Below are positions 6,845 through 44,395 of a stretch of DNA of 64,000 nt, one piece after another. The notes under the pieces were generated by a model, which saw only the letters and a list, made by a program, of their open reading frames with translations, had not been told where the DNA came from and ran no database searches. Source of the DNA: Clostridia bacterium (GTDB taxonomy: Bacteria; Bacillota; Clostridia; Oscillospirales; Acutalibacteraceae). The position numbers were made by a program, and so were the translations under genes. Position 1 is the stretch's first letter; each line of letters opens with the position of its first letter. The stretch covers positions 714 through 64,713 of the forward strand of contig JAWXUR010000003.1 of NCBI GenBank assembly GCA_044426265.1, written 5' to 3'.

Positions 6845-7103
6845 GTAGGGTTCGCTTTCGCTCACAATGAAAAATTAAGGTTTTTTCTTTTGTTTTATGG
6901 CTTGATTTATTAGTTAATCTCGTCTACGCTCGCCGTTAGTGTTTTGTGTCAACTAAAATATTACATATCTATCGGTTATTTTGCTTAAGTTGCTTGCATT
7001 GGAATTGTCCCTCGTTTATAATGTGTGCAACGCACGCCACCACAATTTTTCATTTTTCATTCTTAATTTTTCATTGTGAGCGATAGCGAACCTTAGCCGC
7101 TAC
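6845..7103. repeat. MITE-like element R2 bounded by 31-bp terminal inverted repeats
   Basis: Left arm 6849..6879 (GGTTCGCTTTCGCTCACAATGAAAAATTAAG) matches the reverse complement of right arm 7062..7092 at 30 of 31 positions. Outer ends are GTAG (6845) and CTAC (7103). Internal modules recur inverted at 17419..17500 and 42790..42900. Confidence 0.85.
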
Positions 7104-21847: not shown

Positions 21848-21934
21848 GCCGGTGTGATGGAATTGGCAGACGTAGTGGACTCAAAATCCACCGCTGGCGA
21901 CAGCGTGCCGGTTCGAGTCCGGCCACCGGCACCA
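21848..21934 (+). tRNA. tRNA-Leu (anticodon CAA), CCA encoded
   Basis: Hand-folded. Acceptor GCCGGTG/CACCGGC, 3-bp D stem, anticodon stem GTGGA/TCCAC with loop CTCAAAA. Long variable arm (GCTG-GCGA-CAGC) and T arm GCCGG-TTCGAGT-CCGGC. 87 nt. Confidence 0.9.
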
Positions 21935-37939: not shown

Positions 37940-38290
37940 TTACAATAGTTCTTCAACCCATTGTTTTGGCTTGAAACCGATTAAAACTTTATCGTCTAAA
38001 ATCAAAAGCGGACGCTTAACAAGCATTCCATCTGTTGCCAAAAGCTCAAATTGTTCTTCATCACTCATGTTTGGCAGCTTATCTTTAAGCCCTAATGACT
38101 TATAAATCAAGCCGCTGGTGTTGAAAAGTCGTTTGAGTGGGAGGTCGGATTTTTGATGAAAGTCTTTTAATTCTTCGATGCTTGGGTTTTCATCTTTGAT
38201 TTCTCGAAAGGTGAAAACTTGATTGTTTTCTTCGAGCCATTTGATTGCGCTTTTGCAAGTTGTGCATTTGCTGTAGCCTATTAAAATCAT
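37940..38290 (-). CDS. ArsC/Spx-family redox protein
   Basis: 116 aa. N-terminal CxxC (SKCTTCKSA) and ArsC-family length and pattern. Confidence 0.8.
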   Translation of the reverse strand: MILIGYSKCTTCKSAIKWLEENNQVFTFREIKDENPSIEELKDFHQKSDLPLKRLFNTSGLIYKSLGLKDKLPNMSDEEQFELLATDGMLVKRPLLILDDKVLIGFKPKQWVEELL

Positions 38291-38391
38291 TGATTTTCTC
38301 CTTATCTTAATGTTTTCATATATTTTTTAATTGTAAATTACTACTTAATCTTGTGTACTAATTAGATTTAGCTTTTGTTTATAGTTTTTGC

Positions 38392-38597
38392 GTAGCGGTG
38401 AGATTGCTTTGTTTTGCCTTCGGCAAAATCAAGAAACCCCCGCCGAGGGTTTCTTACGCAAAAATGTCCACCGGACACTTTTGCTATCTTCCTGCGGTTT
38501 TTTGGCGATAAGGTATTTCGTTCGCTGCGGCGAACGCCCAAAGGCTCTGCCTTTGGAAACCGCAATTTTTCGAGAAAAATTGAGTAAAGCTTTGCTC
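38392..38597. repeat. Hairpin-chain element, full copy H2 (inverted relative to H1)
   Basis: Begins GTAGCGGTGAG. Same module order as H1 but with changed, still-complementary stems: CCAAAGGC-TCT-GCCTTTGG, AGAAACCC...GGGTTTCT and GTTCGC-TGCG-GCGAAC. Ends 24 nt from the stop of the lipid-kinase gene. Confidence 0.88.
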
Positions 38598-38620
38598 ATT
38601 ATATTGCTTTAAAATTCTTC

Positions 38621-40704: not shown

Positions 40705-40925
40705 AAATACCTGCTTTCTAAGTTTACATACTATTTTTAATTTCAAATTCAGCCAAGTTTATAAGTAGCTGATAAAATGATTTTAGGTTATAGGCACGCT
40801 CGATTGAACACACCTATAACCATTGTAACATTTTTATTCGGATTTTAAAAGTAGTTTAGCGTAAAAAGTTTGATTTATGCTTGACTTTTTTCAGTTTTTG
40901 CACAACCCAACAGAAAATTGAGAAA

Positions 40926-41290
40926 AAGCAAGCAAAACTTTACTCAATTTTTCACAAAAAATTGCGGATTCTAAAGGCAGAGCCTTTAGGCGCTCGCCGC
41001 AGCGAGCGAAACTCCCAATCGTCAAAAAAATCAGGAGGATAGGCAAAGTGTCCAGTGGACATTTTTTTGCGCAGTAGCTTGTAAATTTTAAAACTTTACA
41101 TAATTATCGAGAGATTTTTGTCTAAATCAAGGCGGAGGATTGAGCAATACTTTCGTATTGCGATTGACGACAACGCAGAGTTAGACTAAAATATACGATA
41201 AGTATGTGGAGTTTTAGGGTTTATAAGCTACTTTGGAACCCTATTAAGGGGTTCCTTGATTTTGCCGCTGGCAAAACAAAACAATCTTAC
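40926..41290. repeat. Hairpin-chain element, full copy H3, carrying a nested 158-bp hairpin insertion
   Basis: Collinear with H1 except for 41074..41231 (GTAGCTT...AAGCTAC), inserted between the TGTCCA/TGGACA and GGAACCC/GGGTTCC modules. Confidence 0.88.
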
Positions 41291-41343
41291 CATCAAGCAA
41301 AAACTAAAAGTAAAAGCAAAAACTAAAAGTCAAAAACTAAAAA

Positions 41344-41874
41344 TCAAGAATTTTCAACAGTCAAAAGACCATAACCACCGCTACTTCTTTTATAAATAGT
41401 ACCAATTTTACCAGTATCACTATCTAAGAAAAGATAAAATTGATGATCAAGCAAGTTCATTTGAAGAATAGCTTCATCTAAACTTTGAGGTTTAAGTACT
41501 AAGCTCTTTGTTCTTTCGAGCATATATTCGTCATCATCTGATTCGTAAGAATCGAATCTGTCGTAAGCTTCGAAAGCTTCTTGTTTGAGCCTTTTTTCCA
41601 CCTTCGTTTTATTTTTACGGATTTGACGTACCAAAGAATCAACGCAACTATCAAGGGCTTCGTTCATGTTAATCGCTCTTTCTTGACTACGGAAAATCAT
41701 ACCATCATGATAAATAGTAACTTCCACCTTTTGTTCGCTTTTTTCAACTGTAGCAGTTACTTTCGCTTCCGTATCACTTGAGAAGAATTTTTCGATTTTC
41801 TCGAGTCTTTTTTCAGCTCTTTGAATGAATGAATCTCTAATTACGCATTTTCTGCCGACAACTGTTATTTTCAT
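41344..41874 (-). CDS. hpf: Ribosome hibernation-promoting factor (long HPF/RaiA family)
   Basis: 176 aa. S30AE-like N-terminal domain and a C-terminal dimerisation domain (LKPQSLDEAILQMNLLDHQFYLF). Confidence 0.9.
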   Translation of the reverse strand: MKITVVGRKCVIRDSFIQRAEKRLEKIEKFFSSDTEAKVTATVEKSEQKVEVTIYHDGMIFRSQERAINMNEALDSCVDSLVRQIRKNKTKVEKRLKQEAFEAYDRFDSYESDDDEYMLERTKSLVLKPQSLDEAILQMNLLDHQFYLFLDSDTGKIGTIYKRSSGGYGLLTVENS

Positions 41875-42101: not shown

Positions 42102-42341
42102 TTATATTTTCGTTTTATAGTAAGCTTTTTCCAATTTTTCTTCGTATGTATTAAACTCAAACGGCTTACCTGTTTGGTTTTCGTATTGGGTTAATAGGGT
42201 TTTTAATTTTTGATGATAGCATGAGTTTAGGGTGTTTGCGGTTTGGTCGGTTTTTTGTTTTTTTAGGTATAATTCTATTGATAAGATTATTCTTTTTGTG
42301 GTTTTTATTTGTGATGTTAGTGTTTGGATTGTTTGTTTCAT
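42102..42341 (-). CDS. Small hypothetical protein (79 aa), uncertain
   Basis: ATG is preceded by AAGGGGTGA with 5-nt spacing, and a TATAAT lies about 30 nt upstream. Lys/Thr-rich, helical-looking, with no motif I recognise. Confidence 0.35.
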   Translation of the reverse strand: MKQTIQTLTSQIKTTKRIILSIELYLKKQKTDQTANTLNSCYHQKLKTLLTQYENQTGKPFEFNTYEEKLEKAYYKTKI

Positions 42342-42459: not shown

Positions 42460-43262
42460 AAAGTTGGACGTAAGGAGCACCGCAGGTGCGGATATCCCAC
42501 TTTATAAAAGACTAAGGCAAAGAAGACAAAGAACAAAACAGTCGGGGTGTGCCAGATTTTTAGGCTGCAAGGCAGGCTAAAAATATTCCCCACCGACGGC
42601 GATAAAAATAAAATGTCCTAAATGCAGTGAGTTCCCCAAGAACGCATTTTGGTTACTTTTGTGCGAGCAAAAGTTACGCTGTGTTTTGTGTTAATTAAAA
42701 TGTTACAATAGCTATCGAGGTATTTTGTTTAAAACAAGGCGGAGGATTGAGCAATACTTTCGTATTGCGATTGACGACAACGAAGTTTTAAGCAAAATAA
42801 CCGATAGATATGTAATATTTTAGTTGACACAAAACACTAACGGCGAGCGTAGACGAGGCTTTCTTATAAATCAAGCTATAAAACAATAAGATTAATTTCT
42901 TTATATTACCTAATATTCGTTTACAGGTCACCAAAATAGCCAGCTGTCGCTGTCTGTTTTGGTTATGCCCATAAATCAGTCCGTAAAAAATCGCTTTGCT
43001 CTTTTTACTACTAACGCAAATGCGATATCGTTTTTCCTTTACATTGCTGTTTAGGTTACGATACCGCATTTAGTTAAATTGTTCTATTTTTTTTCGCATT
43101 TGCTTTTTTCATTTTTAAGTTTTTTATTTGTTTTGAAATTGCTGGGGATTTCGCTTGCTGCTGCAAGCGCCTTAAGGCTCTGCCTTAAGAATCCGCAATT
43201 TTTCGTGAAAAATTGAGTAAAGCTTTGCTTGCTTTTTTCTTTTTCTTTTTATTTTTTCTTAT
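42460..43262. repeat. Hairpin-array repeat locus R14 (~800 bp)
   Basis: Contains GCACC-GCA-GGTGC and a TTTTTAGGCTGC/GCAGGCTAAAAA hairpin. Carries the 48-nt core (42735..42782) on its own stem, modules inverted relative to 6890..6990, the CGCAAATGCGAT module, a partial hairpin chain (43148..43232) and a T/C tract (43233..43262) abutting a gene stop. Confidence 0.82.
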
Positions 43263-43264
43263 GT

Positions 43265-44395
43265 TTATTTTGCTTGAGCGTATACTTTTTCAATGATCTT
43301 TTCCATCTCATCTAAATGCTCTTCCATACTCTCAACCAACTTAAACTGATTTCTAGCTCTATCCAAATTATGACTATCATGCTTAACCGCAAAATAAACA
43401 TTACCTTGAATATGATCAGTCAAAAATCTAATGCCACACTCAAGTGTCATCAAAATCGCTGAAAACGCAATATTTTCAACTTCAGCTTTAGTCAAAGCAC
43501 CAGCACACTCGCCCAAAAAGCCCTTAGCATAACTCTCAAAAAGTTCAAGAGAAACATTAACCTTACTCAAATCTGTTTCATCTTCAACCGCAGTGTTAGC
43601 ACCAAAACGAATTGAATCACCAAAGTCATAAAGTGAAAGACCAGGCATAATAGTATCAAGGTCGATAATACAAATGCCCTTTTTTGTGTCGTTATCAAAA
43701 AGGATATTGTTAAGTTTAGTGTCGTTATGTGTCACTCGAAGTGGAATCAAGCCTTGTTTATGTAAGTCAATAACTCGATTAGTGGAAGCCTCATGAGCTT
43801 TAACAAACTCAATTTCTTTTTGTACGCTTTCACATTTGCCCACGATGTCAGCTTCAACTGCTTTTAGGAAAGTTTGATATCTAACTGGTGTATTATGGAA
43901 GTTTTCGATAGTTTCGTGAAGAGTTTCGATTGGATAATCGCTAAGCCTTTTTTGGAAAAGTCCAAAGTTTTTGCCAGCGTCTTCAAAAATCGCCTTATCT
44001 TCAATCACGTTGCAAGTGTAAGAATTATCAACGAAGTCGTAAATTCTCCAGCACTTATCAGTTTCATAATATAAATAACTGCCCTCATTTGTTTTAAGAA
44101 AGTTCAGTGTACCTCTTTTATAATCTGCACCCTCTTGTTTCATTTTGTTTCTCAAATGAGTTTCAACTCCAACTGTGTTTTGCATGATTTTTTCAGGGCT
44201 TTTGAAAACAACAGTGTTGAATTTTTGCACGATGTACTTGTGTACCTCGCCCACATTTTCAAAAACGGCTAAATAAGTTGAGTTGATGTGTCCGTCCGTA
44301 TAACGTGAACAGTCGGTAAGCTCGCCTTGTATGCCAAAATTTCGGCAAACAGCAACAAGTTCTTTTTGTACGCTAATTTCGATGTCTTTAATCAT
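43265..44395 (-). CDS. APH-fold sugar kinase, N-acetylhexosamine 1-kinase (NahK)-like
   Basis: 376 aa. DGHINSTY, IVQKFNTVVFKSPE and VTHNDTKLNNILFD resemble NahK-type kinases. Confidence 0.65.
   Translation of the reverse strand: MIKDIEISVQKELVAVCRNFGIQGELTDCSRYTDGHINSTYLAVFENVGEVHKYIVQKFNTVVFKSPEKIMQNTVGVETHLRNKMKQEGADYKRGTLNFLKTNEGSYLYYETDKCWRIYDFVDNSYTCNVIEDKAIFEDAGKNFGLFQKRLSDYPIETLHETIENFHNTPVRYQTFLKAVEADIVGKCESVQKEIEFVKAHEASTNRVIDLHKQGLIPLRVTHNDTKLNNILFDNDTKKGICIIDLDTIMPGLSLYDFGDSIRFGANTAVEDETDLSKVNVSLELFESYAKGFLGECAGALTKAEVENIAFSAILMTLECGIRFLTDHIQGNVYFAVKHDSHNLDRARNQFKLVESMEEHLDEMEKIIEKVYAQAK

Follow-up and report, generated by a model that had tools for sequence, protein, structure and literature searches.

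Two identical 48-nt sequences, each displayed at the apex of a long hairpin, occur in a 64,000-nt stretch of the genome of a Clostridia bacterium (Acutalibacteraceae; assembly GCA_044426265.1, contig JAWXUR010000003.1, positions 714 to 64,713 of the forward strand; hereafter "the window"), which raises the question of what kind of element they belong to and why this part of it has been kept. A first-pass annotation had read them as a protein- or RNA-recognition site mounted on two unrelated stems. We find that the two hairpins are diverged copies of one element, and that its family and its mobility signatures mark it as a MITE (miniature inverted-repeat transposable element; a non-autonomous DNA transposon) with putative IS5/PIF-Harbinger-type ends. 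On balance, we favor the view that the 48-mers are the central modules of these ~158-nt MITE copies, and that this core acts as a cis-acting recognition module needed for the spread of the element.

Two diverged copies of one hairpin element

Within the window, the 48-mer (CAAGGCGGAGGATTGAGCAATACTTTCGTATTGCGATTGACGACAACG) occurs exactly twice, at 41128–41175 and 42735–42782 on the + strand, without any difference between the copies, as the annotation had stated, and each copy holds the perfect GCAATAC-TTTC-GTATTGC hairpin that it had pointed out (41144–41161 and 42751–42768). No further match was found in the window at up to three mismatches (chance expectation 0), and searches with each half of the core returned no window sites beyond the same two. 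A covariance model built later (R1) also found only these two full copies in the window, which are laid out as follows.

41075–41232, + strand: MITE copy 1, the whole hairpin element of ~158 nt, delimited by its long hairpin fold (ends ± ~2 nt; covariance model R1, 107.6 bits)
41128–41175, + strand: core of copy 1, 48 nt, exact match, with loops kept across phyla; 5′ loop CAAGGCGGAGGATTGA at 41128–41143, apical hairpin at 41144–41161, 3′ loop GATTGACGACAACG at 41162–41175
41144–41161, + strand: apical hairpin of copy 1, GCAATAC-TTTC-GTATTGC, with compensatory changes in 6 of 7 pairs across the family
42681–42837, + strand: MITE copy 2, the whole hairpin element of ~157 nt, with inverted termini GTGTTTTGTGT.../...ACACAAAACAC (covariance model R1, 107.0 bits)
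42735–42782, + strand: core of copy 2, 48 nt, exact match; 5′ loop at 42735–42750, apical hairpin at 42751–42768, 3′ loop at 42769–42782

Folded as + strand RNA, the two regions reach −65.9 kcal/mol (41060–41245, z −8.6) and −72.5 kcal/mol (42670–42850, z −10.3), which bears out the description of each core as capping a long imperfect hairpin; the stem strings quoted in the annotation occur as given, and 42728/42792 is a T:G pair. The hairpins reach farther than had been noted, to ~41075–41232 and 42681–42837. Folds of the − strand are 18–20 kcal/mol weaker (−47.4 for copy 1 and −52.9 for copy 2), and the wobble pairs of the arms are, as annotated, mostly G:U on the + strand (G:U versus A:C, 8 versus 1 in copy 1 and 5 versus 3 in copy 2). 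What failed was the claim that the stems are unrelated, since the arms of the two copies align end to end with 72 of 111 positions identical (65%), and a 75-nt block surrounding the core is 89% identical. At 65% arm identity, a core matching at 48 of 48 positions has P ~1e-9, and the core thus truly differs from the arms in its conservation. As no more than 1.6 kb of intergenic DNA, rich in repeats, separates the copies, chance, local duplication or gene conversion confined to this genome might be suspected, but arms that are only 65% identical do not fit a recent local duplication, and the recurrence of the same core at hundreds of loci in two phyla (see below) refutes an origin confined to this genome, an explanation to which we give practically no credence.

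Copy 1 is inserted within another local repeat, of which an uninterrupted paralogue (38362–38596, − strand) and a partial one (43143–43237) are also present. At the junction, the uninterrupted repeat reads ...TTTTTGCG-TA-AGAAACCC... (reverse complement of 38340–38620, without the hairpin segment and with TTGCG before the TA), and the interrupted repeat reads ...TTTTTTTGCG-cA-(158 nt)-Tt-tGGAACCC... The existence of a repeat paralogue without the hairpin indicates that the hairpin is a discrete inserted unit, with TA at the empty-site junction.

A family shared by Clostridia and Actinomycetes

The annotation's proposal turned on whether the core recurs elsewhere with flanks that base-pair, and both proved to be the case. 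A family query of the form GGCGGAGGATTGA-N12-30-GATTGACGACAA (25 fixed bases) recovered the core at >230 loci, namely at least 119 loci in a genome set holding one genome per species and 112 loci in JGI metagenomes (metagenome GC 0.34–0.74), so the core is not confined to the two places in the window. Exact-pattern retrieval favors intact cores. The genome count is a lower bound, and the distribution described here is that among the matches listed. These comprise, among Actinomycetes, Sciscionella and many Streptomyces (chromosomes and plasmids, with several copies per genome), and, among other genera and families, Oscillospiraceae, Oscillibacter, Syntrophomonas, Syntrophomonadaceae, Dehalobacter, Butyrivibrio, Lachnospiraceae and Clostridiaceae; a single Syntrophomonas metagenome-assembled genome (MAG) holds >30 core loci. 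In nearly all core loci, base-pairing of the flanks gives a long hairpin that carries the core at its tip. A Streptomyces copy matched 31 Streptomyces plasmids, with almost never an annotated feature beneath it, and the AT-rich window copy found no match in the plasmid collection. Viral contigs gave 0 matches to the core pattern, and JGI metagenomes gave 0 matches to the exact 43-nt apex. From Clostridia to Streptomyces the core is almost unchanged, and it identifies a real and widespread element.

The core consists of 5′-CAAGGCGGAGGAUUGAG, a short covarying hairpin and YGAUUGACGACAACG-3′. It is non-palindromic and is flanked by two ~55-nt arms, the outer ends of which are the terminal inverted repeats, and the element as a whole is near-palindromic. 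Outside the positions fixed by the query, conservation is at least 90% for CAA before the core pattern, for the closing G and Y of the apical hairpin, and for CG.AG after the pattern. The elements have no coding capacity, with no open reading frame (ORF) across them, and the apical hairpin varies between 18 and 21 nt in length, so that the frame is not maintained through the core, which is thus non-coding; a short ORF through the core was considered and rejected, as its frame shifts with hairpin length.

Signatures of mobility

Elements of the low-GC and high-GC sets alike have a median length of 166 nt, with many of 157–162 nt, and sharp boundaries. Their ends are terminal inverted repeats, for example GTACTCTGTCAACCC.../...GGGTTGACAGAGTAC and GACCGACCGGCA.../...TGCCGGTCGGTC, which vary by subfamily (GTACTCTGTCAACCC, GTAGTCTGCGTCGCC and GTCATTCAACTTG in Firmicutes; GACCGACCGGCA, GGGCCTTTCG and GGGTCTGTCCGG in Streptomyces) and start with G (GA, GG or GT). 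Across 194 distinct insertion sites, target-site duplications took the form of CTAG on both sides in 39 and of an identical TNA triplet on both sides in 18 (TAA 9, TTA 4, TGA 3, TCA 2), and when the boundaries were displaced by 20 nt as a control no CTAG or TNA duplication was found (0/194). One locus (L088) has CTGG on both sides, a direct repeat that is non-palindromic. Both window copies have degenerate flanks, and the paralogous empty site shows TA. Duplications of 2–4 bp at C-TA-G or TNA, combined with termini starting with G, are the signature of the IS5/PIF-Harbinger (PHIS) superfamily (PMC4482050). The present family has 2–4 bp duplications at (C)T(N)A(G) and termini starting with G or A, and its placement as a MITE with IS5/PIF-Harbinger-type ends is one made at the level of sequence. 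The narrower association is presumably with the IS427/IS1031 subgroups.

Insertion sites in Streptomyces vary from species to species, with only a few syntenic among 60 loci. Every low-GC copy is intergenic, and the copies are randomly oriented with respect to the genes that flank them (10 ++, 9 −−, 5 +−, 3 −+). In Streptomyces, ~18 of 51 copies abut a stop codon (7 on the left and 11 on the right), contacts that fit a T(N)A target in GC-rich DNA; as abutment occurs on either side, these copies lie in 3′ untranslated regions (UTRs) in both orientations, where they probably affect 3′-end formation of many genes. In about one third of the Streptomyces copies, one end of the element coincides exactly with the stop codon of a high-GC3 ORF (e.g., L014, L016, L019, L037 and L106).

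Derivatives of the element were also found, among them core-deleted copies, solo ends and decayed copies. Core-less deletion derivatives made up of the arms, and a 26-nt remnant that has TTA on each side, were seen at L015:4056–4141, L091:620–730 (reverse complement) and L050:5060–5078, and the remnant may be an excision or deletion footprint. Three Streptomyces loci (L029:660–700, L048 and L118) carry an extra ~33-nt hairpin, GGGGTCCCCCCTGGCCCTTAAGGCCTTGGGGG, that branches off the right arm just past the core; an insertion sequence (IS) in the right arm of these loci was considered and rejected, the addition being this 33-nt hairpin branch and nothing more.

These signatures bear on the annotation's proposal of a recognition site rather than random repeat debris, which was right in that the copies are not random debris and the apex is far more constrained than the stems, but which framed the site as free-standing, whereas the whole hairpin is a MITE with terminal inverted repeats and target-site duplications. 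A stand-alone host RNA or DNA recognition element (a small RNA gene or a cis-regulatory site), with the stems as independent supports, could account for a conserved apex, covarying stems and the lack of an adjacent transposase. We nevertheless consider it improbable, given the inverted repeats and duplications at 194 different insertion sites, the dozens of copies in one Syntrophomonas MAG, the interruption by copy 1 of a repeat that has an uninterrupted paralogue, and the lack of any fixed position or orientation relative to any gene class.

A fold preserved on one strand

Covariation was assessed in an alignment of 26 representatives of different subfamilies from both phyla. Compensatory changes occur in 23 of the 28 predicted pairs, including 13 of 14 in the middle stem and 6 of 7 in the apical hairpin. 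Paired cells make up 90.8% of this alignment, against 61.5% in shuffles, and covariation scores 0.76, compared with 0.215 for shuffles and 0.12–0.19 for slid partners. In the same pairs, G:U exceeds A:C by 60 to 9; over all arms the counts are 598 versus 326, with a ratio that is alike in the low-GC and high-GC sets. This G:U excess indicates that the + strand fold is the one preserved, and that fold is one of a single strand, RNA or single-stranded DNA (ssDNA), two states that the data do not separate. Core loops that are kept across two phyla while the stems covary fit a site that is recognized in the folded form of one strand.

Recognition of folded ssDNA would also suit a fold that is specific to one strand and leaves a conserved apex unpaired, as in REP/REPIN-RAYT or IS200/IS605 (PATE) mobile elements, whose folded hairpin is read by a Y1 HUH transposase. 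Such systems, however, are without target-site duplications and terminal inverted repeats, both of which are present here, and no Y1 transposase or other gene recurs beside the copies. The few copies in complete Streptomyces chromosomes have no consistent orientation, and we regard an ssDNA element of this kind as very improbable.

The main rival to a role in spread is that the MITE carries the core as RNA-level cargo, which acts in host transcripts and outside transposition. Its possible roles include a 3′-end stabilizer or terminator module, a decoy for the ribosome or an RNA-binding protein (GGAGGA is displayed) or a small self-processing RNA, and the core would be retained by making insertions harmless or useful. 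The strong + strand G:U excess is a classic sign of RNA, but the random gene orientation means that half of the copies would give the weaker antisense fold, and the element has neither a conserved internal promoter nor a terminator U-tract. The ~18 of 51 Streptomyces copies next to a stop codon, hence in 3′ UTRs, speak for cargo, whereas copies that decay in place argue against host-level selection on each copy. Variable helices with invariant loops resemble small ribozymes and aptamers, yet no known ribozyme or aptamer family matched in the Rfam scans. The Bacillus cereus group provides a precedent in bcr1, a MITE-like repeat that is transcribed and has RNA-level compensatory changes (PMC3184786). 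Taken together, we view RNA cargo as unlikely, although it is the alternative that we take most seriously.

In the Rfam 15 scans, the window copies of the element drew no match at the gathering threshold, and 10 related loci from both phyla drew none either; at E ≤10, copy 1 had only chance-level similarity to snoZ13_snr52 (22.9 bits, gathering threshold 47) and MIR868 (20.7 bits, gathering threshold 200), and copy 2 had none. Random orientation and unrelated neighbor genes do not fit a riboswitch or leader, and a scan for intrinsic terminators flagged none at either element, the nearest (41235–41255) lying outside copy 1. In both window copies, a −10-like hexamer accompanies the TTGACG of the 3′ loop; an internal promoter was nonetheless rejected, since other Firmicutes and Streptomyces show no conserved −10 and the region holds no more promoter-like sites than expected.

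A proposed role for the core in propagation

Copies decay in place and insertion sites turn over, yet the core is kept by every successful subfamily in two phyla, for which selection at the level of the element is the simplest reading. Mechanistically, an IS5/PIF-Harbinger-type DDE transposase would act in trans on the element ends at (C)T(N)A(G) targets, and the + strand would fold on itself, either as read-through RNA or as ssDNA. In the folded + strand, the two invariant loops would face each other and form a purine-rich non-Watson-Crick helix, which could serve as a recognition platform for a protein, be it the mobilizing transposase or a host factor that is conserved. A need for the core in propagation would account for the spread across Clostridia and Actinomycetes of copies with an intact core only. 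We infer both this requirement of the core for transposition and its ligand.

By inspection, the invariant loops can form an antiparallel duplex of 5′-G-GAUUGA-G-3′ with 5′-C-GAUUGA-C-3′, in which the proposed pairs would be G-C, G.A, A.G, U.U, U.U, G.A, A.G and G-C, with GGA facing GAC one step out. The resulting helix would be continuous, purine-rich and non-Watson-Crick, with local two-fold symmetry, and is a plausible protein-binding platform. A K-turn reading of the core was rejected, also by inspection, as the 3-nt bulge lies on the wrong side of the G.A pairs. A bolder and doubtful possibility makes the core a structured nucleic-acid module, new and itself mobile, that either travels with a DDE-type mini-transposon across Gram-positive phyla or drives it, for example as an RNA or ssDNA cofactor site to which the transposase has to bind (RNA- or fold-assisted DDE transposition), a new small ribozyme or a protein-sponge RNA spread by the MITE.

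Several points weigh against a core that is needed for spread. DDE transposases normally require the termini only, and we know of no established precedent for a central-module requirement in the IS5/PIF-Harbinger superfamily, to which the element is putatively assigned from its target-site duplications and termini and from no other feature. In the 1.66 Mb of core loci, we found no autonomous element whose ends match. No conserved internal promoter was found within the element and, with random orientation, + strand RNA would come from some copies only. Because the query itself fixes the 25 pattern positions, these show no variation and true core variability is underestimated, and a few copies do depart from the common core. 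At L178:1162–1273 (− strand), UUGAG-hairpin-YGAUU, and with it the GAUUGA module, is swapped for a different purine-rich loop and hairpin, CGAAAG-CGGGC-UUUGU-GCCCG-GUGAG, while AAGGCGGAGGA...GACGACAACG is kept, a variant that points to two separable layers in the core; a few core changes are present at L158 and L197; and at L203:1600–1800 an insertion of ~100 nt in the apical loop is tolerated. The subfamily representatives share ancestry, so the G:U counts are of non-independent events. Arm complementarity could be upheld by templated (quasi-palindrome) mutation instead of selection, and part of it may come from palindromic transposon architecture, although templated mutation would not yield a strand bias. 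Finally, the non-canonical loop helix is our own pairing scheme, neither computed nor measured.

The search for a partner was otherwise negative as well. No transposase for the element was found in the window, no autonomous partner in 40 kb of a Streptomyces plasmid carrying nine copies, no paired orphan termini at IS-like spacing in the 1.66 Mb of loci, and no recurrent neighboring protein in three rounds of ORF clustering, in which an apparent cluster of 31 loci was rejected as a low-complexity artefact of high-GC ORFs. Orphan termini were considered as ends of autonomous elements and rejected, being solo ends or deletion derivatives only. A parent IS with its core split by a gene was likewise discarded, as the sole split core is that of L203, in which the insert is 100 nt long and without an ORF. 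This insert is related to a nearby inverted sequence (L203:1528–1545).

Comparison with described elements

Tourist-like MITEs, bacterial and eukaryotic, that are mobilized by DDE transposases of the IS5/PIF-Harbinger superfamily resemble the present family in being small (~160 bp here) and non-coding, with terminal inverted repeats starting with G, 2–4 bp duplications at a palindromic T(N)A, numerous intergenic copies and a whole-element hairpin (types of duplication and inverted repeat in PMC4482050). In ordinary MITEs the termini are conserved and the interior drifts, whereas here the pattern is reversed: the termini vary and a ~45-nt center is nearly invariant, with a strand-specific fold. 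By description rather than by sequence, the bcr1 element of the Bacillus cereus group is also alike, being ~155 bp long and MITE-like, with short flanking direct repeats, non-conserved positions, transcription and compensatory changes (PMC3184786), but it occurs in a single species group only, with direct repeats of 5 bp and a cruciform-like fold of two stems, and often loses its structure, whereas the present family spans two phyla and has a single long hairpin with an invariant apex. The Correia/NEMIS and ERIC/IRU elements are likewise palindromic intergenic mini-elements, of 100–170 bp, that are co-transcribed with their neighbors. Correia elements carry a functional central site, which binds IHF. 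These elements are proteobacterial, however, and their central sites bind protein as double-stranded DNA, in contrast to a covarying hairpin between invariant single-stranded loops. REPIN/RAYT and integron attC sites share with the present family a function exerted through the hairpin of one specific strand, with structure kept while sequence varies; they differ in having neither target-site duplications nor terminal inverted repeats and in placing their conserved determinants in the arms or base rather than at the apex, and ORF clustering of the core loci found no RAYT or integrase gene beside the present family.

A full-text literature search, by keyword and by core sequence, returned no description of the element, within a coverage that is incomplete, such that an earlier description elsewhere is possible. 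What sets the family apart from the closest described elements is the inverted conservation pattern, in which variable termini enclose an invariant, strand-specific structured center common to Clostridia and Actinomycetes. MITEs are usually seen as decaying shells in which the termini alone matter, and this is reversed here. If the core is needed for mobility, it would imply a DDE transposition that requires a folded single-strand element, so far undescribed; if it acts in RNA, it would be a widespread mobile structured RNA missed by current catalogues. Practically, the element breaks short-read assemblies, as contigs end at the MITE. Many contigs of the Syntrophomonas MAG terminate inside it.

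Genomic neighborhood of the copies

Apart from the two full copies, the window holds one partial copy, which the annotation had overlooked, as follows.

6939–6988, − strand: half element, right arm only; with ~21 nt of outer flank, ~71 nt (6918–6988)

This half element and its flank show 100% identity with copy 2's right arm and flank (42785–42856) taken as reverse complement, and it ends abruptly, precisely at the arm/core junction. Beyond the flank, within 6880–6988, there is further, weaker similarity to the surroundings of copy 2. The half element looks like a product of rearrangement or hairpin breakage, rather than an independent insertion.

Judged by gene content and composition, the window comes from a low-GC member of the Bacillota. 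The intergenic DNA of this genome is a mosaic of small repeats. A second repeat family of ~235 nt, unrelated to the MITE, is present at 38362–38596 (− strand), at 40923–41066 plus 41237–41326 (+ strand) and at 43143–43237 (− strand), its copies being 79–91% alike and the middle one being split by MITE copy 1. It consists of several small hairpins, such as CTAAAGGC-AGA-GCCTTTAG, GCTCGC-CGCA-GCGAGC, and GTGTCCAGTGGACAC with a T-run after it. Beside the MITE copies, and elsewhere, there is a further short repeat, TTGTTTTATRGCTTGATTTATWAG (6898–6921, 42862–42885 as reverse complement, and 38099–38112). Two Logan contigs that contain the window gene at 43265–44395 (L120 and L121) stop ~44 nt beyond the gene, where the repeat-rich stretch begins.

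Between the MITE copies lie two ORFs, both on the strand opposite to them: one of 176 aa (41344–41874, − strand), which by eye is a putative ribosome hibernation factor (hpf-like), and one of 79 aa (42102–42341, − strand). A search of the contig collection with the hpf-like protein sequence, for strain comparison, returned no record. Two ordinary structured RNAs, unrelated to the MITE, were also noted, namely a tRNA-Leu(CAA) in the window (21848–21934, + strand) and a c-di-GMP-I riboswitch in a Lachnospiraceae locus (L039:1855–1940, − strand).

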